From assembly GCA_963514005.1 (NCBI GenBank), contig OY740808.1:2170001-2234000 (forward strand): 64,000 nucleotides of DNA. Direction: 5' to 3'. The translations under genes were made by a program, and so were the position numbers. How positions within the stretch are numbered: position 1 is the first letter of the stretch; each line of letters opens with the position of its first letter. This DNA comes from Raja brachyura. Lineage: Eukaryota. The notes beneath the pieces are model-generated. The model was not told where the DNA came from. It searched no databases and saw only the letters and a list, made by a program, of their open reading frames with translations. This document shows, one piece after another, positions 7,010 through 63,970 of the stretch.

Positions 7010-7059
7010 CTAATATTTGGTAATATCTGTTTAATTATTTTTTATCTGATTGAGTCATA

Positions 7060-18858: not shown

Positions 18859-19002
18859 TTACTAGAGAGGTTGAGTTCAAGATAGTTTATTGTCACGTGT
18901 CCCAGATAGGACAATGAAATTCTTGAAGCAAAGCAAGAATTTCATTGTCCTATCTGGGATACATGACAATAAACTCTCTTGAACTCTTAAACTCTCTAGT
19001 AA
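18859..19002. repeat. Near-perfect inverted repeat made of two LINE 3' tails
   Basis: Arms 18873-18925 and 18934-18986 are reverse complements (3 mismatches in 53), with an 8-nt spacer; outer TTACTAGAGAG/CTCTCTAGTAA also pair. Confidence 0.9.
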
Positions 19003-20861: not shown

Positions 20862-21749
20862 TTAAGGAATAGTAAAATTATAACAAAGGATAATACTTGT
20901 TTAAGAAGTGCTTTGAGGAATATCTAGAGGAGGGTGAGAATTCAGGAGTTGTTGAAAGTTAAACCATGACTCTATCCAATAATACAGAAGCTGGTACTGA
21001 TGAATAGTTGTCCAGGCAGTATCATTGCAGGTATTGGTGAAGGGTAATTACCTGTGCATACGGTTTTGTCTTCTTTATTATTTCTGCTATTTCACATTCA
21101 TCTCAAAGTATTTTTGTGTGCCACTATACAAATTATTGCCTAGACCTCTATGTCTATTAGATTGATTTACTGATTTTTTTTAAAAGTCCGATTGACTTTT
21201 TTTTCTCCATAATTTTAATCTGTAACCTGAGGGGTGCTGTGCAATTGAAAGGGGCACAAAGGGAAGGAGCTTACTCTACGTTATCTCCAACTCATTTATA
21301 TTCATGAAATACGTTTGAAGCATAGGCATCCTGGAGCATTGGTCAATGTGGAACAACTGTTAAGGAAAAAGATTAATTTTGCAGTTGGGGGAGGGGGAAA
21401 CAGTGTAGATGAAGTCTTTGATTCTTATATAAATCATTTTAATGTAAACAGAAATCCATTTAAGTCTTGAGTAAATAATGTCTCAATTTGCATGAAAGTA
21501 GCTGGAGAATAAGCATCATTGCCTAGAGTTAGGTAGACACAAAATGCTGGAGTAACTCAGTGGGACGGCCAGCATCTCTGTAGAGAAGGAATGGTAAAGT
21601 GTTGGTACAGTTTGTCCTCTTTATCAAGGAGTTAACCTAATAAAGAGCGTAGCTCGTCCAAATTCATCACTGGCAATTACTGCTGTTGAGTCTGAAATGC
21701 CTTTTGCACAAAACGGATATAAAACAAGATTTACTTAAAAATTCATATG

Positions 21750-26164: not shown

Positions 26165-27795
26165 CAATGTTAACAGAGTGAAAATTTAGCAATGAGAGCA
26201 GTCTGGGTTGCCGTCAAAGAAGTACTGAAGGTACTGTCATGTTTGAAAGAAGACAAATCTCTGGGGCCTAATCAGATGTATCGGAGAACACTGCGGGAAA
26301 CTAGAGGAAATTGCGGGATCCCTGGTTGAAATTTATGAGTCGTCCTTAAATGCAGGAGAGATGCCAGAGGATTGGAGGGTGGCAAATGTTGTGCCTCATT
26401 TCAAGTTGGGCTGCACGGAAAATGCTGGGAACTTTTGGCCGGTGAGCTTAACATTTGTAGATGGTAAGTTACTGGAGAGTATTCTGAGGGATAGGATATA
26501 CAGACATTTGGATGGGCAAGGGCTGATTAAGGACAGTCAGCATGGCTTTGTATGTGGGAGGTCGTGTCTCACAAATCTGATTGATTTTTTTTTAAGACAA
26601 GAGAGCTGTATATGTTGTGTACATGGACTTTAGTAAGGCGTTCGACAAGGTGCCGCATGATAGACAGCTCTGGAAGGTTAGATCGCATAGGTTCCAAGGA
26701 GAGATAACTGAATGGATAGCAAATTGGCTCCATGGAAGGAAGCAGAGGGTGATGGTGGAAGGTTGCTTCTCAAAATGTGCCCTTTGACTAATGGTGTGCC
26801 ACAGGGTTCGGTGCTGGGTCCGTTACTGTCTGTCATCTACATCAATGATTTGGATGAGAACATACAGGGCATGATTAACAATTTTGCTGATCTTGCAAAA
26901 GTGAGTGGTTTTGCAGATAGTGAAGATGGTTGTCAACGATTGCAGCAGGATCTGGATCGATTGGCCAGGTGGGCGGAGGAGTAGTTGATGGAATTCAATA
27001 CAGAGAAGTGTGAGGTGTTGCATTTTGGGATGTCAAACTAGGGCAGGACCTACACAGTAAATGGGTAATGTTGTAGAGCAGAGGGATCTAGGAGTACAAC
27101 AAGTGCATGGTTCTTGAAGGTCGAGTCGCAGGTAGATAAGGTGATCAAAAAGGCTTTTGGCACTTTGGCCTTCATCAGTCAGAGTATTGAGTAAAGAAGT
27201 TGGGAGGTCATGTTGCAGTTGTAAAAGACGTCGGTGAGTGCATTTAGAATATTGTGTTCAGTTCTGGGGTTCATGTTATATGAAAGATATTGCCATCTTG
27301 AAAGGGTTCAGAAAAGATTTACGAGGATGTTACCAGGTCTGGAGGGTGTGAACTTTCGGAAAAGGTTAAGTAAACTGGGTCTCTCTATTCCATGGAGTGT
27401 AGGAGGATGAGGGGAGATCTTATAGAGGTATACACAATCATGAGAGGAATAGATTGGGTAGATGCACAGAGTCTTTTACCCACAGTAGGGGAATCGAGGA
27501 ACAGAGGACATAGGTTCAAGGTGAAGGGGAAAAGATTTAATAGGAATCCAAGGAGTAACTTTTTCACACACAGGGTGGTGGGTGTATGGAACAAGCTGCC
27601 AAAGGAGGTCGTTGAGGCTGGGACTATCCCATCGTTTAAATAGTTGGACAGGTACATGGATAGGACAGGTTTGGAGGGTTATGGACCAAGCGCAGGCAAG
27701 TGGAACTAGTTTAACTGGGACATTGTTGGCCGGTGTGGACGATTTGGGCCGAAGGGGCTGTTTCCACACTCTATCACTGTGACTGTATGACTCTA
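26165..27795 (+). mobile_element. Older degenerate CR1 LINE (RT domain to 3' tail)
   Basis: PEDWRVANVVP, SQHGF..GRSCLTNL, GVPQGSVLGPLL..YINDLD motifs with stops and frameshifts. Confidence 0.93.
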
Positions 27796-28539: not shown

Positions 28540-28560
28540 TGACAATAGAGAATGCAGATA

Positions 28561-29740
28561 TAGAAACATAGAAATTAGGTGCTGGAGTAGGCCATTCGGC
28601 CCTTCGAGCCTGCACCGCCGTTCAATATGATCATGGCTGATCATCCAACTCAGTATCCCATACCTGCCTTCTCTCCATACCCTCTGATCCCCTTGTCCAC
28701 AAGGGCCACATCTAACTCCCTCTTAAATATAGCCAATGAACTGGCCTCAACTACCCTCTGTGGCAGAGAGTTCCAGAGACTCACCACTCTCTGTGTGAAA
28801 AAAGTATTTCTCATCTCGGTCTTAAAGGATTTCCCCCTTATCCTTAAGCTGTGACCCCTTGTCCTGGACTTCCCCAACATCGGGAACAATCTTCCTGCAT
28901 CTAGCCTGTCCAACCCCTTAAGAATTTGAAAGTTTCTATAAGATCCCTTCTCAAACTCCTAAATTCTAGAGAGTATAAATCAAGCCTATCCAGTCTTTCT
29001 TCATAAGACAGTCCTGACATCCCAGGAATCAGTCTGGTGAACCTTCTCTGCACTCCCTCTATGGCAAGAATGTCCTTCCTCAGATTTAGAGACCAAAACT
29101 GTACGCAATACTCCAGATGTGGCCTCACCAAGACCCTGTACAACTGAAGTAGAACCTCCCTGCTCCTATACTCAAATCCTTTTGCTATGAAAGCTAACAT
29201 ACCATTCGCTTTCTTCACTGCCTGCTGCACCTGCATGCCTACTTTCAATGACTGGTGTACCATGACACCCAGGTCTCGCTGCATCTCCCCTTTTCCTAAT
29301 CGGCCACCATTTAGATAATAGTCTGCTTTCCTGTTTTTGCCACCAAAGTGGATAACCTCACATTCATCCACATTATACTGCATCTGCCAAACATTTGCCC
29401 ACTCACCCAGCCTATCCAAGTTACCTTGCAGTCTCCTAGCATCCTCCTCACAGCTAACACTGCCCCCCAGCTTAGTGTCATCCGTAAACTTGGAGATATT
29501 GCCTTCAATTCCCTCATCCAGATCATTAATATATATTGTAAATAGCTGGGGTCCCAGCACTGAGCCTTGCGGTACCCCACTAATCACTGCCTGCCATTGT
29601 GAAAACGACTCGTTTACTCCTCCTCTTTGCTTCCTGTTTGCCAGCCAGTTCTCTATCCACATCAATACTGAACCCCCAATGCCGTATGCTTTAAGTTTGT
29701 ATACTAATCTCTTATGTGGGACCTTGTCGACAGCCTTCTA
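28561..29740 (-). mobile_element. Young 5'-truncated CR1 LINE with one frameshift near 28925
   Basis: ORFs 28901-29665 and 28650-28913 are consecutive RT parts; nearly identical to the 7841-8723 copy. Confidence 0.95.
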
Positions 29741-31349: not shown

Positions 31350-33130
31350 GTAAGGAAAGGAACAGGTATCGTCCAAACTTGGACTATAATTGTATTATTC
31401 CTGTATTCCGTTGCAGCCATATCTAATTTACAGTCGACACTTTTCTTTTGGTGGGTTTAACTAAAGTTATTTCAGTTTTGAAAGATGTCGGCAAGGTACT
31501 GTTGCAATATGCAATGCTGGTAACCAGGCCACTCTTGGGTATCACACAGTGCCAATGCTATTTCTGATGTCAATGCGAGAACTCTCCCCAGTTTAACCAT
31601 TACTTCATCACCAAGTTACAAGATGCAAGTATTTGTCACCAGGTCTGCCACTGGTGCTAAAACAAAAATAGTGCAGATTCTCAAAGTGAAATGAATAAGA
31701 TGGTTTGGAGCCAAGACAGATCCTGAGTTGTGCAAGTATGGGAGTAAGTGCACTGGCAGTCTTTGTGAAATGAAAGCGACTCCAACATGGAGTGAACTTG
31801 GATCCTGAATAAAATGCATCCATATAAAGTTGTTTTTTTTTAACCACTGGAAGAGTTCAGCAGGTTGGGCAGCATCTTTGGGGGGAGGAATGTACAGGCA
31901 ACAGGACCTTAACCATCTTCTGTCCAGTTCCCTCCACAGATGGACATAAGTTAAAGAAAAATGTTGCAACATTTTTATTATTAGTAATGTTTTGACAAAG
32001 TAACTCCTGATTTTTGAAGGACCACTATTCTTTTCACTGAATCAAAGATGATTTTTTTTTATTGAGTGAAGCAAAGATCTTAACCCATAGCGGATTCATG
32101 GGGAATGCATCATTCATTACCCTGCTTTCACAGCTGACTGCTTACCTTTCACTTGGATCTGGACGGCAGGTCACCCATTTTCTATGGACAAAATCTTGGA
32201 TTAAAGATAAAATGGTCTCACCAAAGTTTTATACAGCTACACCATGACTTGCAAGTTTTTGTTCTCAATGCCCTGACCAATGAAGGCTGCCTTCACCACA
32301 CTATCCACTTGTTGCCCTTGCAGGGAGAAATAGACTTGCAGCCCAAGATTCTCTGTACATCAATGCCTCTCAGGGTCTTGCCACTTTATACTTTTCGCTT
32401 GTAATTGACCTACCAAAATATAACACCTTTTAAACTTAATTTGCTATTTCTTCATCCAAATTTTCAATGGATTGATTTCCTGTTGTATCCTTTAACGAAC
32501 TTCCTTGCCATTCTCAACTCTCTCCATTTTTGAGTTGGCTGCAAACTTACCAATCAATCCACCTACATTTTCATCCAAATAATTTATATTGCGAACAACA
32601 ATCCTTGGGGAACACCACTTATCATGAACCTCCAGTTAGATAAACACCCTTCCATCACGACCCTTTGTTATCAGATTTGTATGCAACGTACCAAGATTCA
32701 CATATATGACTTGTACTTCTGGACCAGCCTATCACAAGGAATGTTGTCAAATATTTTACTAAAGCTCACGTAGCTGATGTATTTTTCTGTCAATATACAT
32801 TTGTGTTTATTAATGGGCTAAGTGCATTTAAATCTTATCCATGGAATGCTTTCAATATTGAAAGTAAAAGAAAAGCAATGTGGTTAAGAAAATTATTGTC
32901 ACATGTTGTATTTTAATAACTTAAAGATACTTTTATTCATCTTACCATTAAAACCACTTTAATATTTCCACCCAATATATGTTTTTTCCTTATCAATTAC
33001 TTGATTTTCAAGAAGTTAAAATGACTAAATATTGTAGGCATAAAGAACTTTTGTGACCATTTATATTGTGGTTTCTGTTCTGGCACCATAATTTTAAAGT
33101 TTTTACTTGCATATCAAGGAAGGAACGAAT

Positions 33131-35414: not shown

Positions 35415-36059
35415 GTTAGTAATTGTTTGTATTGTACATTTGAAGTACCATTATTCTTTGTGTTGTCAAAACAGTTGCTTAAGATAATGTATTTATTTAG
35501 GCAGTAGCACAGTTGTTTGCTTTGGCTGCTTGCCAGCATATTTCTTTCATGCAAAATTTAAGTATTTTAATGGACTGCAGTCAACTGAATGACTTGGCTG
35601 AGACTTGCCAGTTTATTTTCAAATGAGAAGATTGTTAAACTTGCCCTTGAAATCTGATAACTGTCCCCGGAGCCTGGAACAGAGACAAGCCTCCCATGAA
35701 TGTGACAGCAGGCAGACAGTGTTCGTACCTGATTATCTCAGGGAATGGGTGTAACTCAGCCTTTCAGAGTGCAGGAGTACAGGCTTTCAGGTGTCGGTTT
35801 GTGGTCTCTGTTGTTGTGAAGTGGTATCTTTGCTGTTAGGGCTGGAAATCACACCCTTCATTGGGTGTCTGAGTGTGTAACGCCATTACCAGTCAAGTAC
35901 TTGCCAATAATATGAAGACTGGTTGTGGCGATGGGGGTTCCAACTCTGCTCTCAAATGAGTGTTTTCATTTTTATAATTTAAGATTTTTATGTGCTATTT
36001 GTGATTTTTAAAGGATCCATTTTGGTCATTATAATGTCTTCCATGTTCCCATTTCTCAG

Positions 36060-36285
36060 CTTCCAACAGCATGTTTGGTCACAAGGAAGGTCCAGGGATA
36101 CAGAGCCTCAACAATGCTCACGAGCCATGGAATCGCCTCCATCGAACGCCACCTTCATTTCCAACACCTCCTCAATGGCCAAAGCCAGGGGATTCAGAGC
36201 GGAGCTCCTCAGTAACTAATCACGACAGAGATCGCGATTTGGAGAAAAGAGAATCATCACTTAAAAATGACAGAGAGAAAGAAAG
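36060..36285 (+). CDS. FBRSL1: FBRSL1 penultimate coding exon
   Basis: tctcag / AG|gtgctg; [18 protein letters not shown] motif; phase 1 to 2. Confidence 0.95.
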
Positions 36286-37762
36286 GTGCTGGTTCTCTTG
36301 CGTTTTAATCAAAGTTTTCATAACTTGTTTTCAGTTTAGAATCCTTGGTTTCCATCACTCTGCTCTAGACCCTGTGCATGTTTTTTTTTCACTCAGATTC
36401 GAGTTTTTTAATGGTTTTGTAGAGATCAGGTGCCCAAGTGTCTTTAATGTTGCTGTATTTGGGAACTTGAAGAAACTTTAACCATGGAAGTCCTCACAAT
36501 CGAGCTGAATCCAATCCCTGGGCAGTGTTCACACTGCACTTATTACAGGTTTTTCAGCAGTAATCAGCCAGCCTTAAATGTTAGAAACTCAAACTTTAAA
36601 GCCAGTTATAATCACTCTGGTGATAACCTAGTTCAACATAGAATGCAAAGAGAAACCAGTCCAACATGCTCAGGTATTTAGGACTGACCCATATAGGGCA
36701 AGACAGTCACCAAGACAGTCGTGCACTCATGAGTTTATTTGCCAGTTCCACCAGTCTGTTGCCAGCATGAGTTCCCAACCTATTTAAGTAGCTGAGCCGT
36801 CTTGTTCAATGGCCAGTGATATAACGGAGCATGGGATTATTATTCTGCAATCATAGTGGTATGTGGGGAACAAGAATGTTTTAGATCTGGATGTAATTTT
36901 CTTTTGCAAAAGTAAATGGATAGAGTAATTGTTTCTTAGTGCTGTGTAAACCAAGCAGCCATGAGTTGGAATTTCCAGCAGTTTGAGGCTGCCAGCAGTC
37001 AGTAATGGCCAGATGTCCATGTTCAAGATTCTCTCCATGATCCTGCCTCTACCAGATCTGTTCTACAAGGCAAAATCCCAAACAGGATTATATCAGGCCT
37101 GATGATTTATTGTTAATGGATATACGATATGGAAATAATTGCCTTTTTAAAAAAAATGAAAGTTAGGCAATCCAAGTCTTGAAAGAAATAAAATTTAAAA
37201 GTGCATTGTATGACCAAGCCACACGAGAAGCAAAAGCCTTTGGGAATCTCAATTCCAAGAGATATTTTGTTAGAATTTGCCACATCAATGGCCATTCAAC
37301 CCATCATGCCTCTACCAGCTCTTTCAGATAGCTTCAATTCATCTGCCCTACAAATTCTTCCTTTCTAAGTATACAGTTAACTCTTCAGATTGTTGCTGAA
37401 AGTATTCTAATCGCCTTTCCTATCCTATTGTTTCTTTAACTATATTGCACTTTATCAGAAATATAAGTAAAAGTTTGGTTATTTGTAAATTTGAACACTT
37501 TTGCATAATTGTGGGATGACAAGTCAATGTTGGGTATTTGCAGCCATTGATCTGTATTTGTAAAGACAAAGGTCGGATTAATATTCCAATGAACGCAATA
37601 TTTCTGATTAACATACCGGGTTTACTAGATATTTAGAATACTTGATGGTCTAATTCTGCACTTATGACGAACTTTATAAAGTAATTGCCTGAAAACTTGT
37701 AATCTCCCCAAATTCTTAGTTTCATTAGTTTTTGGCTGGTTAGCCAGATTACTTCATTTTAA

Positions 37763-39037
<1,275 letters not shown>

Positions 39038-42990: not shown

Positions 42991-43912
42991 CCTGCTCTAT
43001 TTGGTGAGGTCCCACCAGGTCACTTATGTACCACATACCTACTCTGACCCTATAATCATTTGTTTCCTGAATACATTATAAGCCTTTTGAGCTTTAAACA
43101 TCTTCAGCAGCTGAGCTGCCACCGCTGTCCAATATAGAGAATTTTGTATTTCACCACCCTTCGGAATTTAAAAAAAAATCTAATTTCTGAAAGAGCAACT
43201 TGTATGTCACTGAATCGTGATGCTGGATTTGGACACCTCAGCCAGGGAAATAACAACACTGCATCTACCTTTCAGGCCTTATTTTATTTGAATGCTTCAA
43301 TAAGATCACTGTTTTCAAATGCAAGAGTACAGGACAAGTCTCCTAATCTCCTCATATGACAAATCTGACATCTCAGAAATGCGTTGCATGAACTTTCATT
43401 GTGCTCCCTCTTTCAAGTATAAATCTGTTACATGTAGGGACAGCACATCTGTTCAGGGACAACTAAGGATGGGCAACAGATACTGGGCCATGCCAAATCA
43501 TGAAAAAATTAATATAAATCAATCTACCAGATGCGGTATTGTAAGGCCACAGTAATAATTAAAGCCAGGTACCTCTGCTTTTGTATTTAAATCCCCTTGC
43601 AAAAAGACCCATGTATTTCACCATTTAAAAAATATTCCACTTTTCTATATTTTCTACTGATATGGATAACTTCAGATTTTTCTATATTATATTCCATGGG
43701 ACATGTCCTTGCCTTAACCTTTCTATATGCCACTGAAACATCTCTTTCTCACAGTCTACAGAACCACCTCGCTTTTTATCATCAGCAAACTGGATATGTT
43801 GGACTCGCTCCATTATTCCAAATCATTGATACAAATTGTGAACAACTAGTGTCATTGCATGGAAAGTAGTGGTAGCTCCACATCCATAATCTCCCAATCA
43901 ATAAACAACATG

Positions 43913-43998
43913 GGTTACACAAAAAGCTGGAGAAACTCAGCGGGTGCAGCAGCATCTAAGGAGCGAAGGAGATAGGCGACATTTTGGGTCGAGACCCT
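43913..43998 (-). mobile_element. Penelope/MER6-like element inserted in old CR1 debris
   Basis: Perfect 15-bp TSD TCAATAAACAACATG at 43898-43912 and 43999-44013. Confidence 0.8.
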
Positions 43999-45729
43999 TC
44001 AATAAACAACATGTCTGTTCCTGCTACTCTCTATTCATTAACCAATCTCAACCCATACATTGCTCCCAGTACCATATGTTCCAGATTTGTTGAATAATTG
44101 TTTGTGACACTTTAGCCAAGGACTCCAACTCCATCATATCGACTTGCTCACCTTCATCTATTCTACAATTTCAATAAATTCTAATAGATATGTCAAAATA
44201 ATTTTGTCCTTGTCCATGTTGATTCTGCCCAATCCCTTCACTATTTTCGAATTGAAGATCAATAAAATTGCAGATGCTGGATTCTGTAATTAAAATATAT
44301 AATTATGGAAACAGTAAGTTGGGCGGCATCTGGGGTGAGACACGGCACAAAGGTTTTAGGTCGAAGGCTCTATATCAGGTTATTTTGCAAGAGCCTTATG
44401 ACTTCCATAATTAGATTCCAGCTTCTTTGATAACAAGCAAATTGGTCTATAGTTCCCTACTTTCCCTCCATCTCTCCTTAAATTGTTAAATGACTTTGTA
44501 TTCTGGAATGGCTCCTATAGATTGCAAGGGAACAAAGTATTTTGGAAGAAGGCAAACACAGCCTTCACCATCTCCACAAATGCCTCCTGCTAAATCCTAG
44601 AATGTAGGTTGTAAAAAAAATGTTTTTAATTATTTTGTTCATTATTTCTGGAAGATTTTCTGTGCCTTCGTTATATTTCATTTTGCGTGTCAAGTTCAGG
44701 GTCCATAAGGGATGTACATTAATTAATCTTTTCCTTATGCATATATGTAGTGGATCTTAAACTTATGAGGTACTCTCCTTATCAATATCTTGATTTTTCT
44801 CTACAGGATTCCTAAGTGTTTCCAATCCTTAGGCTTACTACCACTTCTCATGTTGGAAGCCTTTCCTTTGATCTGATACCATCTCCAACGTTTCTTGTTA
44901 GTCAAGGACAAACTATTTTCCTTACTTATTTTCCCTAAATGGATTTACCTGCAAATCCATGCATTTTTTAAAGTTGGCCAATTATGGTTTCATGTCATTA
45001 AACATCATTTAGTTTCTGAGCCTCTCATTGTACCCGTCACCTAATGCTTTGGAAGTTTGGTTTGTTGATATTTAAGACCTTAGTTTCAGTTTGAACTAAA
45101 CCATTTAAATCTTTATATTATATATGATCACACTCTTAAAGCTGCCAGATGATTTTATTTACCCTTTCTCCTTGCATAATATTAGATCTAAAATAGCCCA
45201 TCCTATCAACATATTGTTTTTTTTTAAACAGATCTTATACACTCCAGGAATTCATTTTCCCCTTTATTACCATTTAGTTGGTCTGACCTTTCTGTATATG
45301 CATTAACTCCATGATTAATATATTACTCTGATCACATGCACCTCTAAATTCCTGATTTACACATGCCGTACTTTCCCAATACTATTAGGAACCTATCTAC
45401 AACTCACTAGAATGTTTATTTGCCACTTTTTCTTAGACACACACACACACACAAACACATTGATTTTACAGCTAAAGTCCTATCTCTCTACTGCCTTTAA
45501 CCCATCCTTTCAAAGCAGTGCAACCCCACCTCTTCCAAAAGTTAAGCAACCTTTCATATTTAGTTTTCAATCTTGACACTTTGCAGCCCGATCTCTGCGT
45601 TATCCATCGGATGCATCTACATTTCTATTTGTGCAATTCAAGACCAAGCGAGTCACAATGTTGAACTGCAATATGCACTGGGAGCGAACAATGACATTCT
45701 TACTTGCTGCAGCTTTACAGGAACATTAT

Positions 45730-46990: not shown

Positions 46991-47981
46991 TATCCTCAAA
47001 GATCCTTGGTTTTCTTTGCCCTGCACAGCAAAAGCTCATGAATCTCCCCATTCTGTCTGGAATTATTAACTTTTGGAACTGACAACAAATATTTGAAAGC
47101 CAGAAGACACTTCAGATGCTGGACTTGGGAACAAAGATGGAAAGCTGCAAGAAGCAACATGAGAGGCCAGCACTCCTGTTTCCAACATTTTTTGACACAC
47201 ACTTCCCATTACCTTTCTGTTCAGTTTTACTTTTTAAATAATCTTTCCAATAATGTGTGGCAGGTTACCGAACAGCCAAGACTTTCCTAAAGGTCCATTT
47301 CTATTCAGCTCGGAACCATATTAAATTTATTTCCAGCTGACTGGTGCAACAGGATGAGCAAAACCTTTAAGAAAAGTATTTGTGTTCTCAAATATTCAAT
47401 ATGTTTCTCGTATGTTTTTCTTCCTCAAATATTCCCTTTCTGCTTCACTCTTCTTCCACAAACCTGTCGACCCCGCCTGGTTTTCCTCTCTTTACCTTCC
47501 ACACAACCACAATGACGTCACTCCTAGAGTATAATTCCCACAGGCACATTTTCCATCCTGACCCTTCCACCTATCTCCCATGGTTTCTTTTCATCTCTGG
47601 CCTTTGTCCAACCATCTGCCAATCAAACATCCTCCTGGCCTGCACCCACATATCAGACTTTGTTCAGCCCCTCCCTCTCTTCCAGCTCTCAACCCCACAA
47701 TCAGTCTGAAAAAGGATCGCAACCCAGAATTATGTCCTACCTATCCACATTCTCCAAAGATGCTACCTGACCCACTGAGTTATTCCAGCATTTTATGTAT
47801 TTCCCCCCCCCCCCATTGTATCTTTCACATCACATTTAAATCCATGTCCTCTTGTACTTGATTCCCCGACCCTGGGTAAGAGAGTCTGTATTCCCCTCAT
47901 GATTTTATACCACTCAGTTTCCTGTGCTCCAAGGAATAAAGTCCTTGTCTGCACAACCTCATAAATCTTCTATGTATCTTT

Positions 47982-48167
47982 GTGTAAGAAGGAACTGCAG
48001 ATGCTGGTTTAAACCAAAGATAGACTCTCTCCACATCACTGTCTATATCTCTCGTTTCCCTTATGCCTAACCAGTCTGACGAAGGGTCTCAGCCCACAAC
48101 ATCACCAATTCCTTCTTTCCAGAGTTGCTGCCTGTCCCACTGAGTTACTCCAGCTTTTTGTGTCCAC
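47982..48167 (+). mobile_element. Penelope/MER6-like element with inverted 5' segment
   Basis: TSD CTTCTATG(T/C)ATCTTT at 47967-47981 and 48168-48182; CTGACGA-agggtctcagccc core at 48076-48095. Confidence 0.75.
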
Positions 48168-49679
48168 CTTCTATGCATCTTTCCTTTACTCCGTATTGAG
48201 TTCAGTAATTTTGGATTCAGCATTTTCAACATCTGCATTCACAACTGTTTAATTCCAACCTGCATTGCAGCAATTTATGTTACTAATTTTTGTCAATAAT
48301 TTGACTTCTTCCACTTTCACATCCTCTGTACTTTTCTTTGTCTTTCAACTTGTCCTGTTCTCATCCTGTATTGCCATCATCTCTCCTGCCTTCAATCCAA
48401 TCTCTTCTTTCTATCCTTGCCATTTCCCACTTCCTCGCAAACACAGAGTTTGCTTAATCTGCAACTTTCACCAGGTCCTGGATCCTAAGCCAGTCCCTGA
48501 TCAGCTTCCCTCTCCTTAACTCTACTTGACTGCACGGTATTGCCAGCATTTCCTATTTTCATTCAGCATCTGTAATATTTTTGCTTTCGTGTTTGCATTA
48601 GTACTTCCAGATTAACACTGACATATTCAGCTGTAGAGTAAAACTCTGGCTCGAAAGGGCTTAGCTATTTTATATCAAGGTCACATTTAGTTCTAAATTA
48701 CGTTGCCAATTATTGCAGGATTATAGAACCTTACAGCAGAGAAAGACATCTTTGTACAAGGTTTGAAAAGGTTTGCCAGTTTGTCTCTGCTCCAGTCCCT
48801 GCCTTGTCAGTTTGCAAATCTTCATGTCTACATCTATTTCCTCTCATGTCCCTAATCATCCCTTTGCTTTTATTTTGCCAATTATTTTGCCTTTGCTGTT
48901 GCTGTGAGATTCTTCCTGTTAGGGATAGGACTGAGACTGAGCGAACCACTCTCCCACCATCGCATCACTTTGTTTCATCACATCAGTCTCAAACAGAATT
49001 GAAAGACACCAAAGGCAGAGGCTGACTCTGTCCCAGAGCCAGAATTAGTTCCTCCACCGACAACAATGTAATTGAACAGGGAAAACAGAGCTATCCACAA
49101 TTTGGACATCAGATTTTGAGAGTCTGCAAACTGATTGTTTGGTATTGATCGCAGTGCATTAAGAATCATTTAATGCATGAACTGCACAGTCTTCCACACA
49201 CCCATGGGCCCCACTAGAAATACATTTCAGATAAAATCTAAATTACAATCTTTTGTCAGTGATTTGTACTCAGCTGTACAAAGGAGAACTTGTGTTGAGC
49301 AGGTAAACGTGATATGAACAATGAAAGGGCGCCAATGATCACAATTGCTGCTCTATTGCGGGGTATTGATGACATGACATGGTTCTCCTGCTGAGAATAC
49401 CTCATTGTAAAATTATATATTTTTGAGCACTGCAATGACGTGAATATTGTTATCTGATACTGTACCAAGCTTCAATATTGACCAGGGCTTTTTATTATCC
49501 GAGTTGTAAACAGAATTGTATCAGCTCAACTGTTAGGAAAATATGCAACTCCTGGCTGGTTGGAGGGCAGGTTATTGTAGACACATTGAACATGGCAGGA
49601 CCTGCCCTGGCAACTCACCCACTGATGACCAGGCGCTGAGGTACAGCCACAAACACATTTCTTTGTGCTGTGTATCATT

Positions 49680-50074
49680 TAGAAACTTACAAAATTCTTA
49701 AGGGGTTGGACAGGATAGATGCAGGAAGATTGTTCCCGATGTTAGGGGAAGTCCAGAACAAGGAATCACAGTTTAAGGATAAGGGGGAAGTCTTTTAGGA
49801 CCGAGATGAGAAAAACATTTTTCACACAGAGAGTGGTGAATCTGTGGAATTCTCTGCCACAGAAGGTAGCTGAGGCCAGTTCATTGGCTGTATTTAAGAG
49901 GGAGTTAGATGTGGCCCTTGTGGCTAGAGGGATCAGGGGGTATGGAGAGAAGGCAGGTACGGGATACCGAGTTGAACTGCCATTGAATATGATCAGCCAT
50001 GATCATATTGAATGGCAGTGCAGGCTCGAAGGGCCGAATGGCCCAATCCTGCACCTATTTTCTATGTTTCTATG
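49680..50074 (+). mobile_element. CR1 LINE 3' fragment (young subfamily)
   Basis: Close match to 8340-8720; (TTTCTATG)n tail. Confidence 0.92.
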
Positions 50075-51779
50075 ACTTGCCACAGAGTGTTTCCCCTCGA
50101 TTCCCACTGACTTCAAACTAAACAACGGTCTTTGAAGTTAAGGCAGTGACTTCTCAGCTTTCCTCTCATGTCCACGTTTGAAGCGAGGTGTCCCGTGTGC
50201 AACCAACCCACTGTTGTAGGTCAGCACACCGCAGCAGACAACATTGTCCGTGACCCATTTCATCATTGATGGTCAGGCACAGAAAAAAGCCACGAGTAGG
50301 CCATTCAGCCCTTCCAGTCTGCCATCCCATTCAATACGAGCAAAGCCTATCCTCTCTCTCCAAACTATATTCCTGTTCTCCCCCATAAATATGTTGATTC
50401 ACCATCTTCTGACTGAAGCTATTTCTCCTCGCCCATTTCTAAATACTTTGCCCCATATTCTGAGCCAGTCTCCTGCTTCTAGATACTCTCCACCTCTTGC
50501 TACAGAGAACATCCTACCTCTATCCAACTGTCAGAACTTTATGTTTCAATAACATCCACACTCATTCTTCACTCCATAGAACACCAACCTGATTGCTCCA
50601 AACTCTCTACACATGATGCTTACTCCGAGACCAGTGTGAGACATGCTGTCTGACCCGCTGAGTTACTCCAGCTTTTTACATCTTTTCTGAGATAAGGATA
50701 CTCGGCTTCAATTGTGCCCTCGGAATAAGGCATTGGAGGTGAAATGAGAGGAATGGCTAAGATGAGAGTGTGTCATAATCCACTGGCAACCGGGACATCG
50801 AGGGTGAACGTAGAATTGTACACGAGCAGTAGTTTTGCTCGGGTTGTCAACAGCTGAACGACACGGTGAATCAGAGACTGGACTTCAATACTTTTGCAGT
50901 GTAAAGATTACTGGCAGAAATACAATCTCAACACATCCCTGGGGACGGACAGTTCTTCAAGCACGTCACCTATGCCACTTTAATCTTGCAGCTAATTCTG
51001 CAATGTCTGAGACTTACCCAGGCGAGGAGCAGTGGCTCAGGTCAAAGCAAGACATTACACTTTATTACCAGCGATACCAGTGAAGCCTTTTCACTTTATA
51101 TTGGACTGTGAAATACAGTCCACAACTCCATGTGTGACAACCAATGCACTTGCCAAATTATTGCAACAGCACAGAGATTCCTACTGAATAATGCATGGTT
51201 GAAAGGAAAGCAGGAGATGCAGTGAAATATTAGCAGCTGAGGAAGATTGATTGAGTAGACAAATGCCCAGCAGCTAATATAAACCAGCAGAAGGTTGAAC
51301 ATTTCTGACAGTGGAACAGACTCAAACTGTTTTCAACACATTCTAATGTGCCTGTTCATTGTTGTTCTGTGCTGTGAGAAACTATTTTTAATTTGTTCTT
51401 GCTAAATCTTTCCATTTGGCCAGTCAGTGGGTTACGTGCTTTGTCTGCAGTGTTTCACTGTGGAGATGGTTGCTTTATGAGGGAGGTGGTCGGGGGAAGG
51501 TTCATCTGTTGGTCCCAACAGCGTCACAGAGAGTCTGGAAGTCCCGACCTGGGCCTGGCCCAGGAGTGTGATCAAACCCGTCCCCAGGAGTGAGTGGCGA
51601 TGCTGCCCATCCTGTGTCCGCACCATTGTCCCCGGGGTCTTGTCCCACCCTGGGCACTTCCCCTCTATGTGAGGGCAGTGCCCTGGCACCTGTGTCCTTT
51701 GCCAACTGATGTTGAGCACACCCAGCTTCACCTTGCCACAACCTCCCAACTATCACCTTGACCAACTTGCCTTCTGTAG

Positions 51780-52298
51780 TTTAGAGATACAGTGTAGAAA
51801 CAAGCCCTACAGCCCACCGTGTCCATGCCGACCAGCGATCACCCGGAAATTAGCACTATTCTACACATTAGGTACAATTTACAATTTTTACCAAAGGCTA
51901 CAAACCCGTATATCTTTGGAGTGTGGGAGGAAACCAGAGCACTCACGGGGAGAACGTACAAACTTCGTACAGACGTCAGCCGTATTCAGGATCAAACCCA
52001 TGTCACCGGTGCTGTAAAGGGCCTGTCCCACTTGGCGATTTATTTCGGCGACTGTCGGCATCATTGACTGACGTATATCAGGTCACTGAAAAAGTCGCGG
52101 CGGTGACACGGCGTGACGACTTATTGACGCGCGGTGTCTCAAGTGTCGCAACATTTATTTTGTCGCCGCTGGATTTTGAAATGTTCAAAATCTTTTGGCG
52201 ACCTGATACGTCAGTCAATGACGTTGGCAGTCGCCGAAAAAAATCGCTAAGTGGGACAGGCCCTTAAAGGCAGGAACTCTACCGCTGCGCCACCGTGC
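51780..52298 (-). mobile_element. V-SINE interrupted by a MITE
   Basis: tctttggagtgtgggaggaaaccagagc...ggtgctgtaa[MITE]aggcaggaactctaccgctgcgccaccgtg. Confidence 0.8.
52018..52264. mobile_element. PIF/Harbinger-like MITE
   Basis: TIRs AGGGCCTGTCCCACTT / AAGTGGGACAGGCCCT; TAA on both sides (52015-52017, 52265-52267). Confidence 0.88.
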
Positions 52299-53169
52299 CA
52301 GTCCAAAATGTGGACCAGTGGCCCACATTTGCTGGGTAACTTTCCTGAGAAGTGCCCCTTAACCGCACCCGCCCTGTTGTGTGGAGACACAAGACGCAGC
52401 AGGTGCTGGAATCTGGAGCAATAAACACTGGCAAATCTCTCCTCTCACTCCGGATGCAGGGTTTCAACCCAAAACATAGGCAATTCCCCCCACGGATGCT
52501 GCCTGACCCGCTGAGTTCCTCCAGCACTTTCTTTGTTCTGCCTGCAGTACGATGAAGCCATAACTAATCTCAGCTGTTGTAAATGAATGACAGAACACTA
52601 AACCATCCTGGCAGCAGATGAACCCGGTCTCAGTTAATCTGTGTCTGCCAGGCAGCATCTTTGGAGAGAGAAATAGAGAGCGTGGTTCAGATCAATGACC
52701 CATCTCCACAGATGTTGCCTGACCTGCTAATTGCTTCCAGAATGTTCCCGTTTTATTTAAACTTTGTTTTCCCAGCATCTGTTGCCTTTTACGTCTGTTC
52801 ACCAACCGCGAGGAGCCAGTGGCAAATGTAATGTTGTACCAGATTTGAACCAGATGGAGGCTTGATTGTTCAACAGCTTCACCCGACTCCTGGCTGAGCA
52901 GGCTGCAGGCCCAATGCGTGCACATTTTAATCTTCCCTTCCATTAACTTCATAGGATTTGTATTGGCTCTGTGGCTCCTCCAGAACATTCTGTGCTGTGC
53001 TCACTGTGCTCAGGGGCTGAATCCTGATCTTAGTCGTAATCAACCTCCAGGCTCGTGATCTCCTCTTCAACCACCCGAGCTGTTCTCTGCTCTTTACGTA
53101 GGCTTCACTCAACGCCTGAAACTCTCGCCTCAAACACCCTATTCCACAGCTGATTCCAGGATCATATTG

Positions 53170-53293
53170 TTTAAGAAATAACTGCAGATGCTGGAAAAAT
53201 CGAAGGTAGACAAAAGTGCTGGAGAAACTCAGCGGGCGAGGCACCATCTGAGATGCTGCCTCACCCGCTGAGTTTCTCCAGCATTTTTGTCTA
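53170..53293. mobile_element. Fold-back Penelope/MER6-like insertion
   Basis: Two inverted family segments; perfect 14-bp TSD CCAGGATCATATTG at 53156-53169 and 53294-53307. Confidence 0.8.
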
Positions 53294-53630
53294 CCAGGAT
53301 CATATTGAGTAAGTGCTGCCTTTAAGATGCCCTATCATCACGGCACAAACATTACGGGCCGAAGGGCCGGCTCCTGTGCTGTATTTTCTGTGTTCTAATG
53401 GAAACCCACACGGTCACTGGTAGAATGTGCCAACTTCACACAGGCAGCACCCAAGGTCAGGATCAAACCGTGAGGCAGTGGCTTCTCTGCACAGTGTAAG
53501 CTGGAGCGCTCCCAGACTTCTGAAAGTATTCGAGGTGAATAATAAATGTTGGGTTTGCCAACTTGGCCAACATCATGAAAAACTGGATTTTAAAAATCAA
53601 TCCCTGGCAGGCAGCACTTTTGGGGCGGTC

Positions 53631-53938
53631 CAGGACAAGGGGGTCACAGCTTAAGGATAAGGGGGAAATCCTTTAGGACTGAGGTGAGAAGGACTTTTTT
53701 CACCCAGAGAGTGGTGGGTCTCTGGAACTCTCTGCCACAGAGGGCAGTTGAGGCCAGTTCATTGGCTATATTTAAGAGGGAGTTAGATGTGGCCCTTGTG
53801 GCTAAGGGGATCAGAGGGTATGGAGAGAAGACAGGTATGGGATACTGAGTTGGATGATCAGCCATGATCATATTGAATGGCGGTGCGGGCTCGAAGGGCC
53901 GAATGGCCTACTCCTGCACCTAATTTGTATGTTTCTAA
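53631..53938 (+). mobile_element. CR1 LINE 3' fragment
   Basis: Matches 8412-8720. Confidence 0.9.
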
Positions 53939-53984
53939 TTACAAGTTCTTTTTCTGCCTGAATGCCCCTGTCAACAGACTCAGT

Positions 53985-54857
53985 AGACAATAGGTGCAGG
54001 ATAGGCCATTCGGCCCTTTGAGCCAGTACCACCATTCAATGTGATCATGACTGATCATCCCCAATCAGTACCCCATTCCTGCCTTTTCCCCATATCCCCT
54101 GACTCCGCTATCTTTAAGAGCCCTATCTAGCTCTCTCTTGAAAGTATCCAGAGAACCGGCCTCCACCGCCCTCGGAGGCAGAGAAATCCACAGACTCACA
54201 ACTCTCTGTGAGAAAAAGTGTGCCTCGTCTCCGTTCTAAATGGCTTACCCTTTACTCTTAAACTGTGGCCCCTGGTTCTGGACTCCCCCAACATTGGGAA
54301 CCTGTTTCCTGCATCTAGCGTGTCCAAACCCTTAATACTCTTATATGTTTCAATAAGATTCCCTCTCATCCTTCTAAACTCCAGAATATACAAGCCCAGC
54401 CACTCTATTCTCTCAGCATATGACAGTCCCGCCATCCTGGGAATTAACCTTGTAAACCTACGCTGCACTCCCTCAATAGCAAGAATGTCCTTCCTCAAAT
54501 GAGGGGACCAAAACTGCACACAATTCTCCAGGTGTGGTCTCACTAGGGCCCTGTACAACTGCAGAAGGACCTCTTTTCTCCAATACTCAACTCCTCTGGT
54601 TATAAAGGCCAACATGCCATTCACTTTCTTCACTGCCTGCTGTACCTGCCTGCTTACTTTCATTGACTGATGAACAAGGTCCCCCCAGATCCCGTTGAAC
54701 TTCCCCTTTTCCCAACTGGACATCATTTAGATAGTAATCTGCCTTACTCTTTTTGCTACCAAAGTTGACAACCTCACATTTATCCCCATTAAACTGCACC
54801 TGTCATGCATCTGCCCACTCACCCAACCTGTCCAATTCACCTTGCATTCTCATAGCA
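53985..54857 (-). mobile_element. CR1 LINE 3' part
   Basis: Minus ORFs 54196-54726 and 54587-54799 carry RT C-terminal motifs. Confidence 0.92.
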
Positions 54858-55599
54858 ATTGAAAACTCCAATTGAAAACGTGCATCTCCCATCAACGAGT
54901 TGCTCAGTAGCACTGACGAAGGTGGAAACCACATACCTGATCCTCCATTTAAACAGAACACGGCCAGTTCAATGTCGGAGGGGGAACCCGTCCACGTCAC
55001 CTCATCGCTACACAACTTCAATACTCCAAGTCGATGCCAATAAAACACTAACAATTACATCCTCTCCACTGGAAAGACAGCAAACTGGGAGCAGGAGAAG
55101 GCCATTTGACCTTTCTAGCCTTCTTCCCTGTTCAATATCATAAGAGCATTAGTGATAGGAGTAAAATTAGGCCATTTGGCCCATCAAGTCTACTCCACCA
55201 TTCAATCATGGCTAATCTATCTCTCCCTCCTAACCCCAATCTCCTGCCTTCTTCCCATAACCTCTGACATCCGTACTAATCAAGAAATAAACATTCAATC
55301 GTGTTGTCCAACTCTGTCCAGGCTGATTCTTTGGACCAGTGACTGACCAGAGCTGAGAGGTTCAATCACGACGTAGCAAAATATTTATTGCCGATAGTCT
55401 GCTTCAACTCCATAATCCCAACAAACTAAAGTCAAACCCCCTGGATCTAGACCTCCGCCTGACCCACTGACCACAAGCAGTGAGGATAGGCATCAGAAAA
55501 TCCTCTACAATCATTCTCAACAAGGATGAGTTCTCAGCCCAGAGTCTAGACTTACAACTGTGCAGCCAAATTCTCCTTTTACAAGTTTGCAGATTGATG

Positions 55600-56300
55600 G
55601 CATTACTGTACTGGGCTGCATCTCAAACAATGAGTTCGCGAATGAAATAGAGAGCTGAGTAACATGGTATTGAGACAAAAACCCCTCTCTCAATGTTAGC
55701 TGACGAAGAAGCTTGTTACATGCCCCAGTCAGCATCTATGGCGCTGAAGTGGACATGGGCGAGAGTTTCCAGTTCCTCGGCACCAACAATTTGTCCTTAA
55801 CCAACTACAATGAATCAATGGCCAAGAAAGAACACCGACGCCTCTACTTCCTCAGAAGACTAAGGAAGTTTGGCATGTCTACAATGACTTTGACCAACTT
55901 CTACTGATTCATCGCAGCTTGGCTTGGCAACAACTCTGCCCAAGACCACAAGAAATTGTGGATGTAGGCCAGTTGATCACACAGACCAGCCTCCCCCTTA
56001 TTGACTCCATCTACGAGTCACACTGCCTCGGGAGAGCAGCCAAGATAACAATAGACCGCTCACACCCCGGCCATTACCTTTTCTCCCCTCTTCCATCGGG
56101 CAGAAAAAACAAAAGCTTGAATGCATGTACCACTAGATTTAGGAATAGCTTCCCCCCCCCCCCCCCCCCCACTGTTGTCAGATTACTGAACGGTCCTCCC
56201 ATAAGTTTGGGTGTAGTCTGATCTTCCAACCTCCCTCATTGCACAACTTGCACTTTTTTATCTGCACTTTCTCTGTAACACTATACTCTGCACTATCTTT
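55600..56300 (+). mobile_element. Degenerate Rex1/Babar-type LINE RT C-terminus
   Basis: RLYFLRRLRKFGMS..TLTNFY and SHPGHYLFSPLPSGR..TTRFRNSF motifs. Confidence 0.8.
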
Positions 56301-56522: not shown

Positions 56523-56595
56523 AACCTGGCGTGTACAATCAAATAGAACAAGTTGTCCAACGACTTTAGGCTGTGCACACCATACGCAAGAGAAA
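56469..56595 (+). mobile_element. Short non-autonomous retroelement with (AAG)n-like tail
   Basis: TSD ACTGCA(T/A)AGCAT at 56457-56468 and 56596-56607; homologous to the 61979-62111 copy. Confidence 0.8.
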
Positions 56596-56654
56596 ACTGC
56601 AAAGCATGCAAGTTTTTCACTACATGGGGTTCACATGCCTGTGTTCCAGCAACA

Positions 56655-57107
56655 TGCCTGTGTTCCAGCAACTAAGTTACAGAGAAAGGTTGAACAAGTT
56701 AGGTCTTTATTCTTTGGAGCGCAGAAGGTTAAGGGGGGACTTGATTGATGTCTTTAAAATGATGAAAGGGATAGACAGAGTTGACGTGGATAAGCTTTTC
56801 CCATTGAGGGTAGGGAAGATTCAAACAAGAGGGCATGACATGAGAATTAAGGGACAGAAGTTTAGGGGTAACATGAGGGGGAGCTTCTTTACTCAGAGAG
56901 TGGTGGCTGTGAGTAATGAGCTTCCAGCAGAAGTGGTGGAGGCAGGATCGATTTTAACATTTAAAAGTAAAGTGGATAGGTATACGGTCGGGAAGGGATT
57001 GGAGGGGTATGGTCTGAGTGCAGGTAGATGGGACTAGGGGAAAATAAATGTTCGGCACGGACTGGAAGAGCCGAGAGGGCCTGTTTCCGTGCTGTAATTG
57101 TTATATG
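56655..57107 (+). mobile_element. CR1 LINE 3' fragment (distinct subfamily, TTATATG-type tail)
   Basis: LSYRERLNKLGLYSLERRRLRGDLI..TRGH..FFTQRVV. Confidence 0.9.
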
Positions 57108-59076: not shown

Positions 59077-59942
59077 ACCTGCCTCACCCTCTCTGTCCAC
59101 CTGCCCCCCACCCTCTGTCCACCTGCCCCCCACCCTCTCTGTCCACCTGCCTCACCCCCTCTGTCCACCTGCCTCACCCCCTCTGTCCTCTGCCCCACCC
59201 TCTGTCCACCTGCCTCACCCCCTCTGTCCACCTGCCTCACCCCCTCTGTCCTCTGCCCCACCCTCTGTCCACCTGCCCCCACCCTCTGTCCACCTGCCTC
59301 ACCCTCTCTGTCCACCTGCCCCCACCCTCTGTCCACCTGCCCCACCCCCTCTGTCCACCTGCCCCCACCCTCTGTCCACCTGCCCCCCACCCTCTCTGTC
59401 CACCTGCCTCCCACCCTCTCTGTCCACCTGCCTCACCCTCTCTGTCCACCTGCCCCCACCCTCTGTCCACCTGCCCCACCCCCTCTGTCCACCTGCCCCC
59501 ACCCTCTGTCCACCTGCCCCCCACCCTCTCTGTCCACCTGCCTCACCCCTCTGTCCACCTGCCCCCACCCTCTGTCCACCTGCCCCACCCCCTCTGTCCA
59601 CCTGCCCCCACCCTCTGTCCACCTGCCCCCCACCCTCTCTGTCCACCTGCCTCACCCTCTCTGTCCCCTGCCCCCACCCTCTGTCCACCTGCCTCACCCC
59701 TCTGTCCACCTGCCCCCACCCTCTGTCCACCTGCCTCACCCTCTCTGTCTAACTGCCCCCACCCTCTGTCCACCTGGCTCACCCCCTCTGTCCACCTGCC
59801 TCACCATCTCTGTCCACCTGCCCCCAACCCTCTCTGTCCACCTGCCCCCAACCCTCTCTGTCCACCTGCCCCACCCTCTGCCACCTGCCCCCCACCCTCT
59901 CTGTCCACCTGCCCCCCACCGTCTCTGTCCACTGCCCTGTCC
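59077..59942. repeat. C-rich minisatellite, ~21-24 bp unit CCACCTGCC(C/T)C(C)ACCC(TC)TCTGT
   Basis: Roughly 38 tandem variant units read directly. Confidence 0.95.
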
Positions 59943-60829
59943 CTTCTGTCACCTGGGTACAACCCCATCATTTTCCCTCTCGCCTCCTGTCCCCCACTCT
60001 CTGTTCCCTACCCCCTTATCCACCACCACCACCCCACCCCTTACCCCTCCCACACTATCCTCCCCCTCCCTCCCCCATTCATTTTCCTCCCTCCCCGATG
60101 ATGCTCCATCCACAGCTCCCGTCCCACACGTTCAGCTGCAGCCAACTGTCTCTGAGTTGCAGTCACCACTGGGTCTGACCTCCTGCAGCCGCCGTTAGGA
60201 ATGTTTGTGTGAGAACGACCAGAGGAAGCTCTTTCTTCTTTCTATCTCACAGCTTGAGGTTAGTGTTGGAGCAGGCACTGATTGTCTGCATGTGGGAATG
60301 AGAAAGATCCTTTCAATGTTATTTGTGGCTGATCTTGGCTCCAGTTTTGCTGAAGGAGTCAAAGTCTCTCCAATTCAGCCTGGAAATTGGTTATCTTCTT
60401 TGAATCTCAGTGCAGATGTTGGACCAGACTGGGCTGTTTGTTCCACCAAGGTCCCCTCCTCCTTGGCAGCTGCCTCCCACTTTCACCTGACCAGCCTGTG
60501 ACCTTCACCCATCCATGTGAGAACGCTAAGTTGTTCTGTCTGTTCTTGGCAGTTTTGGACCAAGTCTCCAGTCCCCACTATCCACCCACCCACCCTCAAC
60601 ATCCCTTGTGTCTCTTAGTCTGCTGCCTCCCCAATAAAGTCTAGACTTCACCACTCGGGACCTGATTCATCTGAAGTGTTGCCCAAACCAAATGCTATCT
60701 CTGCGTGTGAGTGAACACCCATGCCTGGAAGTGATTTCAGGCTTGGCTAATGACGGCTATCAGTTGTTGGATCCCTGCTCCATCCTGTCTTTCCAAACCT
60801 CACTTGGGGCTCGCAAGGATGCTGCAGCA

Positions 60830-61190
60830 GGCACCCACCACTCTTTGTGTGGAAAGACTTCTCCTTTAAACTTTGCTCCTCTCACCTTAAAGCTCTGCCT
60901 TCCAGTCTTTGACATTTTCACCCTGGGATTGTCGACCCAATCTATGCCTCTCATAATTTTTAGGTAGACTAAATGCTGGAGAAACTCAGTGGGTGAGACA
61001 GCAGGTCAAGACCGAATCGGCGCCTATTTCCTTCGCTCCATAGATGCTGCCTCACCCGCTGAGTTTCTCCAGCATTTTTGTCTACCTTTGATTGTCCAGC
61101 ATCTGCAGTTCTTTCTTAAACTTATAATTTTTAAAAGGCCTCCTCTCAACCTCCGGCATTCCAGCGAAAACAATCCAAGCTTGTCCAAAA
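60830..61190 (-). mobile_element. CR1 3' fragment with nested fold-back Penelope/MER6-like insert (60963-61123)
   Basis: CR1 sequence on both sides; ATAATTTTTA duplicated at 60953-60962 and 61124-61133. Confidence 0.75.
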
Positions 61191-61334
61191 GGACACAAAG
61201 TACTGGACTAACTCAGCGGGTGAGGCAGCATCTTTTGGAGGACATGGATTAGTGGTGTTTCGGGTTGGGCCACTTCTTCACACTTTTTGTGTATTAACTA
61301 GCAGCTGCAGATCTTTGTTTGTCCAACCCCTCAT

Positions 61335-62295: not shown

Positions 62296-62984
62296 AAAGG
62301 ACAGCAGGTGACAATTTATTTGCCCCTTCTATGATACCTTTGTCTCACTTGCTCCCCCCATCAGACGGAATGAGTGAAGCTTCACGGAGAGGGGCATCAT
62401 TAATCGTACTGACAGCAGCAGCAGCCGTGAGAACAACTTCAGTGAACAGCGAGCTCTCACATCCCACAGTTGGACACCTTCTCCGGATGAATTGCCAGTG
62501 ATGCCTTAATCACAATTAGCTGTACATTAGTATCCTGACAAGTGATTTGATGACTACATTGAGTACACTAGCGGGATGCAGACAGTGCCCCTTGGACCGG
62601 CGAGGTTATCTGACGGCAACAGCTGGAGGAGGAAGCCCCAGACCACCCTCCTGACTCAACCTCCCCTCCACTCAGTCCGACAACCACCTAGAACAAGAGG
62701 CTATACTCCTCAAACTCTTCAAACGTCTGCCTCGCACCTTCTGCTTTTATCTCTGGCCTTTGTTCCAACCATCTGTCTATCAAACCCCCCTCGCCTGTGT
62801 CTGCCTATTACCTGCCCCACTGTCCGGCCTCTCCTCTCTCCTTCCCCCCTCCCACAATCAGTCTATAGAGTCCTGACCTGAAACGTCACCTATCCACGTT
62901 CTCCAGAGATGCCGCCTGACCTGTTGAGTTACTCCAGCACTCTGTGTTCTTTTTTATAGGAACCCCTCCATTCATTAGCCGGCG

Positions 62985-63894: not shown

Positions 63895-63970
63895 ACCAGA
63901 AACGTCACCCATTCCTTCTCTCCAGAGATGCTGCCTGTCTCCAGAGTTACTCCAGCATTTTGTGTCTATC
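63895..63970 (+). mobile_element. Penelope/MER6-like fragment
   Basis: gaaacgtcacccattccttctctccagagatgctgcctg..gagttactccagcattttgtgtctatc. Confidence 0.7.

Follow-up and report, generated by a model that had tools for sequence, protein, structure and literature searches.

Introduction

A stretch of 64,000 nucleotides from Raja brachyura (assembly GCA_963514005.1, contig OY740808.1, positions 2,170,001 to 2,234,000; hereafter the window) contains a short element whose copies carry the remains of a hammerhead ribozyme. The locus raises the question of which kind of element disperses this motif, and of whether the ribozyme has left a trace in the copies themselves. This touches on two questions of the field, namely the in vivo role of Penelope hammerheads and the reason why so many bare pseudo-LTR (pLTR) ends are found.

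One Abundant Repeat

Positions in the element are numbered from the C of CUGA, the first core base, taken as 0, with the predicted cut between +27 and +28. All seven stretches cited in an earlier note on this DNA are copies of a single repeat, and more than 15 fragments are indeed present in the 64 kb (25 by one profile, 24 by a second), with none in the reversed window searched by profile as a control. The ends given for these stretches were too short, the element reaching about +93 or about +125 from the first core base, and some copies extend upstream of the core into a 3' UTR and an ORF. In sixty evenly placed 10-kb stretches, 193 copies were counted, which occupy at least 3.6% of the sample and correspond to about 870,000 fragments genome-wide; these 600 kb and the window form the random sample referred to below. 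The intact 31-nt core occurs 12,457 times as an exact 31-mer in the 2.7-Gb genome (0 in the control). By comparison, 4,000–9,000 motifs are reported in PMC4209133, which uses its own descriptor, and no cartilaginous fish term was found in one of its supplement files. An Rfam scan of the window gave no match to the element and only four weak matches to miRNA models, elsewhere in the window.

Among 217 core-spanning copies, which include the 101 of the random sample, position 7, previously described as A or C, is A in 205, while the C present at 48080 is a rare variant (5/217). CpG transitions make up 142 of the 354 core substitutions in the 101 copies (40%) and so fall short of the majority once claimed for them; they are enriched, with a per-site rate of 0.24 vs 0.087 at other sites. 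That no copy is intact holds in the window (0 of 5 core-spanning copies) but not in the random sample, where 14 of 101 are intact.

Read from its sequence, the focal copy is a decayed two-armed insertion that includes upstream bases of the parent 3' UTR (Table 1). Its subfamily is about 9% diverged, and no intact ORF was seen for it; those that are intact come from a sister family of younger age (about 3% diverged). No target-site duplication was seen at the focal insertion, and no coding part of the element was found within the window.

Table 1. Copies of the element and other features located in the window.
Feature	Positions	Strand	Remarks
Decayed minimal hammerhead core, focal copy	48076..48103	+	CUGANGA and bulged A; stem II, GAAA and ACGU damaged
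Predicted cut, focal copy	between 48103 and 48104	+	
Final 47 nt of parent 3' UTR, focal copy	48029..48075	+	matches sequence behind GIY-YIG stop in L032-L049
Remaining pLTR to short 3' end (~+90), focal copy	48104..48164	+	putative first RT start site
Inverted second arm with tail, focal insertion	47981..48025	-	head-to-head
pLTR copy	384..478	-	starts at -4 (5' edge class)
pLTR copy	3240..3370	-	starts at -4; tail present
pLTR copy	5349..5442	+	starts near +30; tail present
pLTR copy	5919..5985	-	starts at +29, directly past predicted cut
Older pLTR fragment	6376..6451	-	
Old head-to-head fragment pair	7503..7642		7503-7608 minus, 7612-7642 plus
pLTR copy	15774..15855	-	internal deletions; within LINE fragment
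pLTR fragment	18364..18430	-	
pLTR copy	21530..21594	-	starts near +30
Short old fragment	31857..31891	-	
Young copy	43912..44000	-	starts at +5; 98% like intact L065 family
Older-subfamily copy	47587..47798	+	~119 nt of upstream UTR in common with 62744-62947
Short 3' fragment	50643..50685	+	
Old fragment	52458..52534	+	
Head-to-head pair	52649..52743		
Head-to-head pair	53169..53295		tail on one arm only
Head-to-head pair	60962..61124		tail on one arm only
pLTR copy	61192..61284	-	starts at -3 (5' edge class)
Older-subfamily copy	62744..62947	+	with upstream UTR
pLTR copy	63899..63970	+	starts at +20
Host-gene exon	37763..39037	+	
Further host-gene exons	4765..5196, 10882..11325, 12906..13760, 36035..36481		
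LINE 3' fragments	7828..8725, 26247..27616, 28553..29737, 49674..50073, 53620..54858, 56570..57037		presumably CR1-like; several subfamilies, 75-95% alike
C-terminal fragment of other non-LTR element	55814..56221	+	HPGH..LF..LPSG motif; presumably Rex1-like
Minisatellite	59077..59955		22-nt units, ~40 copies
MITE-like short inverted-repeat elements	18876..18978, 52010..52272		first gives chance miRNA-model matches

The host gene is likely a member of the AUTS2/fibrosin-like family (first Atlas match 0.90, a lead only), and the focal copy lies about 9 kb past the last coding exon of this candidate.

An Autonomous Parent Element

Where copies extend upstream of the core, some contain the C-terminus of a GIY-YIG endonuclease. 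When the genome was searched with this C-terminus, 122,514 candidates emerged at first look; 150 of them were scored, and 20 loci were retrieved. A motif search allowing two mismatches placed the core 184–318 nt downstream of the endonuclease match in 15 of the 20 loci, and two further loci contain it with more changes. With a reverse transcriptase (RT) piece, open frames as long as 1,204 codons were then located. Locus L065 has the order hammerhead, 1,191-aa ORF, 3' UTR, hammerhead (pLTR-ORF-pLTR), and L061/L062 form a tandem array with a period of 3,965 bp. The unit of about 3.97 kb consists of a single 1,191-aa ORF (RT, Cx4CxxC linker, GIY-YIG), a 3' UTR of 100–250 nt and the minimal hammerhead, followed by about 100 nt that stop just short of the ATG of the next unit.

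The deduced protein (P0003, 1,191 aa, no stop) combines RT and C-terminal GIY-YIG in one ORF. Its Pfam matches are both weak and below the curated cut-offs (RVT_1, E 5e-4; GIY-YIG, E 2e-3), and a frameshifted RT piece (P0002) gave no Pfam match; 933 homologues with RT domains were found for the element protein. The Cx4CxxC linker is present in P0001 and P0003, and its cysteines are invariant. A zinc-finger-like Cx2-5CxxC linker between RT and endonuclease marks Neptune and is shared by Nematis (PMC8557442). Judged by this linker, the element is probably of the Neptune type. The single RT/GIY-YIG ORF, the pLTR tandems, an inverted 5'-truncated copy and an optional tail are all traits of endonuclease-bearing (EN+) Penelope-like elements (PLEs). 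Neptune EN+ PLEs share with the present element the C-terminal GIY-YIG, the linker, partial tandems, the inverted 5'-truncated copy and a tail of 30–40 bp at one end; a long proline-rich N-terminal half, within a total of 1,191 aa, sets the present element apart (PMC8557442).

The Penelope-like link proposed in the earlier note is thus borne out, and the autonomous element for which it called exists, with intact ORFs between hammerheads. We conclude that the repeats are almost certainly the pLTR ends of autonomous Neptune-type PLEs. A close family with the same depth shape occurs in two other organisms, as seen in four of 24 runs. All 24 consist of contigs, and the four, guessed to be RNA but in two cases probably DNA, show no start or end positions and carry no weight as signs of expression.

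Several further features of the parent loci were noted. In L063 (G000:C6:45548001-45558000), two units with a period of about 4.2 kb have incorporated an inverted pLTR pair into the repeated unit, and this pair joins exactly at a CAG-N-CTG palindrome. The ATG of L065 (1640-1655) is part of an AAG/GTATG that resembles a splice site and follows a run rich in pyrimidines. Drosophila Penelope has an intron in its 5' UTR, and some EN+ families have a spliceosomal intron. Finally, two foldings seen in L065:1483-1612 and in alignment A1 are kept in all subfamilies: an 8-bp helix that pairs +48..+55 with the tail, and a small hairpin of which only the loop differs between subfamilies. Neither shows compensatory changes, and they may represent an RT-binding structure.

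By-Products or a Separate Family

The repeats had been taken for a second, non-autonomous family, and a SINE- or retrozyme-like element that spreads as its own short RNA might be expected to leave stubs such as those seen here, with their sharp 5' edge, length of 100–130 bp and very high copy number. An internal promoter could allow the stubs to be transcribed, a composite repeat carrying pLTR ends exists elsewhere in the genome (L135-L140), and two small groups of copies have common upstream flanks. However, the subfamilies of the short copies equal those of the RT- and endonuclease-bearing parents base for base, most flanks have nothing in common, and the 5' ends grade without a break from inside the pLTR into the ORF, protein cover rising from 1 to 19 matches toward the C-terminus. 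Tandem arrays of a short unit were not found in the window, and only 9 head-to-tail neighbours occur among the 217 copies. Moreover, the RNA template of PAc, the Poseidon element of Anolis carolinensis, needs the first 172 nt of the ORF (PMC11167929), for which the stubs have no equivalent. Non-LTR retrozymes likewise have a pLTR-related type I hammerhead, but they are tandem arrays of short units (10.64898/2026.07.22.740005), whereas here dispersed single or inverted ends accompany an autonomous element. We therefore regard a separate family as highly improbable; taken as a whole, the explanation of the stubs as by-products of an autonomous endonuclease-bearing element that leaves its pLTR ends behind is very probably correct.

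The composite repeat (L135-L140, e.g., G000:C1:3813801-3814800) is a dispersed GC-rich sequence of at least 1 kb, with copies 90–98% alike and several nested pLTR ends in both directions. With 13 of the 100 rows of the start census described below, it should number some 500 copies, and it could be either a genuine non-autonomous passenger or a different element that took insertions before spreading. The copies in the window are not of this arrangement. Upstream of the core, 200–300 nt of non-UTR sequence are common to L118:294 (-) and L133:8783 (-), and likewise to L128:210 (+) and L109:718 (-), which suggests small chimeric families.

A Predicted Minimal Hammerhead

The consensus core comprises CUGA-A-GA, one unpaired A, a stem II of 4–5 bp and GAAA-CG-UC. 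The identification as a minimal type I hammerhead, in which a palindromic ACGU replaces stem III, fits the plan of the min-HHRs of PLEs (Cervera and De la Pena, 2014, PMC4209133): both have CUGANGA, GAAA and the UH core, a bulged base after A9 (between 9 and 10.1), G10.1-C11.1, a palindromic 15.2-16.2, no loop 3 and a place in the pLTR, and both occur mostly as single motifs of truncated elements. Such min-HHRs are reported in fish Neptune, Poseidon and Xena (PMC4209133). In all eight reference copies, stem I consists of 2 bp, a 2x2 or 3x3 internal loop and then 1–2 bp; it is weaker than the 3–5 bp of most relatives and shorter than the 4–5 bp of the Schistosoma families (PMC4209133). Stem III can form through ACGU only between two molecules (-3.1 kcal/mol).

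Helix II varies little within the genome, where one subfamily swaps U-A for U-G; in relatives it has 4–7 bp of different sequence. Of 80 metagenome loci that encode protein relatives with 33–50% identity, 16 have a motif of this plan on the sense strand, with a stem II that differs completely in sequence, compared with three antisense matches and none in reversed sequences. Since the fold persists in distant relatives although their stem II sequences are unrelated, the plan is conserved as a structure across the group. Covariation within this genome was not significant, the hammerhead pairs being matched by 47–75 of 500 shuffles. Minimum-energy folds prefer other helices over the hammerhead, and when 17 genomic copies were folded as an alignment, two different helices emerged, neither of them with a compensatory change. 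Published min-HHRs cleave slowly (PMC4209133) or with the help of protein (PMC11167929), and the predicted hammerhead is probably of one kind or the other.

The motif could also have ceased to cleave in this lineage and have been retained for another role, as a core promoter (Inr with downstream element) or as a protein-binding signal. In favor of this are the very short stem I and the near constancy of the 28-nt core sequence across subfamilies, and the ACGT at +27..+30 from A(-3) shares 5 of 8 letters with the Penelope downstream element RGACGTGY (PMC2377424). Furthermore, cleavage was absent in eight of the nine dimers from Xenopus (10.64898/2026.07.22.740005). Against this stand the retention of every catalytic base and of the GUC site in the consensus, the preservation of the fold with other sequences in distant relatives, and a small rise in the number of 5' ends at the predicted cut (see below). 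A loss of cleavage therefore seems unlikely to us; a promoter or protein signal and ribozyme activity are not mutually exclusive.

3' Ends and Inverted Pairs

The 3' ends cluster at two sites, about +93 and +123..128, the latter directly before the ATG. Of the 217 copies, 78 form 39 head-to-head pairs, and two pairs are tail-to-tail. Among 73 partnered arms, tails were scored on both arms in 4 cases and on one arm in 45; the p value of 0.006 for this test is too strong, as pairs were partly counted twice. Head-to-head arms with a tail on one arm have been described before (PMC3846280, PMC8557442). In PAc, two 3' ends about 30 nt apart match two internal RT starts, with a tail; as here, the hammerhead lies just upstream, and in PAc both target strands can be extended and uncut RNA is the main template (PMC11167929). 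The two elements differ in that the PAc ORF starts inside the hammerhead and RT starts within the ORF, whereas both RT starts of the present element lie in the 5' UTR; no pile-up of 5' ends is described in the available account of PAc (PMC11167929).

By analogy with PAc, the element protein would nick the target DNA, and reverse transcription would start internally at the two 3' sites. Transcription would begin at an Inr-like (T/C)CAGT that touches the first base of the hammerhead. An RT that starts some 100–130 nt from the cap would therefore run off at the cap and leave stubs of 100–130 bp, while longer copies would derive from transcripts that read through tandem units, or from jumps between templates. 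The hammerhead would fold solely as a dimer through ACGU, and most templates would be uncut at the time of copying.

A Sharp 5' Edge at the Hammerhead

About a third of the stubs stop at the first letter of the ribozyme, and this edge is sharp. The 5' ends of the 217 sampled copies fall at -8..0 in 72 cases, at -60..-9 in 14 and beyond -60 in 25, while a leave-one-out simulation of uniform truncation placed 110 at -8..0 vs 302 at -60..-9. In the young family, the UTR letters -16..-13 are lost in 8,804 copies (about 27,800 after correction) and kept in 10,641, from which about 71% of copies reaching +9 stop between -12 and +8. Among the first 100 rows of a start census, 95 were usable by eye and about 13 belonged to the composite repeat; the mode was -2 (23 starts), followed by -3 (12), -4 (8) and -1 (7), with 3 at -8 to -6, 3 at -5, 39 at 0 to +9 and none at -12..-9. 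Unknown UTRs might mimic such an edge, but the excess simulated for this artefact was only about 2-fold at -5..0, the upstream bases are not pyrimidine-rich, and the young family, whose UTR is known, has the same edge.

The Inr consensus resembles the bases at this edge. Immediately ahead of a -2 start, G stands in 3,786 copies and C or T in 2,311, i.e., G in 62% (59% without the composite repeat) vs 30% expected. In internal-junction controls, which were small and counted by eye, G was present in 3 of 19 matched cases (p 0.002) and in 21 of 82 (p 0.03). Full-length L1 insertions bear an additional G that has been interpreted as a copy of the cap (PMC11702581). Penelope has an internal promoter with a start within the pLTR (PMC2377424), and an Inr-like TCACT has been noted in a pLTR (PMC3846280). 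We thus favor the 5' edge as the likely mark of RT run-off at a capped transcription start. Against it, the base before -3 starts follows a general purine bias (A 45, G 42, T 13 of 100), and the modal start is a G at -2, unlike the pyrimidine-purine step of a typical initiator.

Alternatively, RT might stall where the folded hammerhead ends, or the cDNA might snap back on CAG-N-CTG, with the purines contributed by end joining. Several inverted pairs do join exactly at the CAG-N-CTG mini-palindrome (L063, L116), purines are generally favored at junctions, snap-back is known for R2 (PMC11371274) and palindromic junctions are known for Penelope (PMC3846280). Most edge copies, however, are not palindromic joins, G at the 5' edge junctions exceeds that in the controls, and past the edge the drop-off rate is about 20-fold lower. 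In addition, as RT travels 3' to 5' along its RNA template, stalling should occur ahead of a structure rather than beyond it. Stalling or snap-back is in our view an improbable source of the edge, and run-off at the cap is retained as the preferred reading.

A Step at the Predicted Cut Site

A second, smaller accumulation of 5' ends lies at the predicted cut. The random sample has 16 starts at +28..+32 vs 10 in 16 flanking positions, the corresponding simulated values being 39 vs 95. In the young family, +28 is the mode (9 of 59 usable rows, 41 of 100 having been dropped), followed by 6, 5 and 6 starts at +30 to +32. Genome-wide, after visual removal of rows that contained indels or internal deletions, 51 starts were kept at +28 (66 raw), about 19 at +26 (34 raw) and about 41 at +29 (55 raw), about 19 of the last coming from one microhomology hotspot. 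The step is thus 2–3-fold and concerns about 1% of copies. Because the counts at +30 to +32 come close to that at +28, the step could also be due to stalling or to trimming of ends, and we consider it possible but somewhat doubtful that it records ribozyme cleavage.

The edge and the step can be combined in a more speculative proposal, which we regard as unlikely in full: the hammerhead would itself be the capped transcript start, with a clipped helix I, about 300,000 run-off cDNAs and, in about 1% of the young family, fossils of cleavage. The start site would trim helix I to 2 bp, so that the cap-proximal copy would be unable to cut and only read-through copies could do so. The roughly 300,000 genomic cDNAs would then be cap run-offs of a "strong-stop"-like kind, and the 1% class that starts at the cut site would be a germ-line fossil record of cleavage.

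Significance

The ribozyme type and its host element are both already known, so that the finding as first written is ordinary; the clues at the start edge and at the cut site were not found in the literature. Our search, which covered few subscription journals, found no paper on a 5'-end pile-up at Penelope hammerheads or on a cap-derived G in Penelope elements, and no junction evidence for in vivo cutting by such ribozymes.

In a family as large and partly young as this one, insertion junctions reveal the ends of the RNA template to the exact base. Should the 5' edge correspond to the cap, no SINE would be needed to explain the stub copies, and the start site would fall on the ribozyme. Should the small step at +28 prove real, junction evidence of ribozyme cutting in vivo would be at hand.
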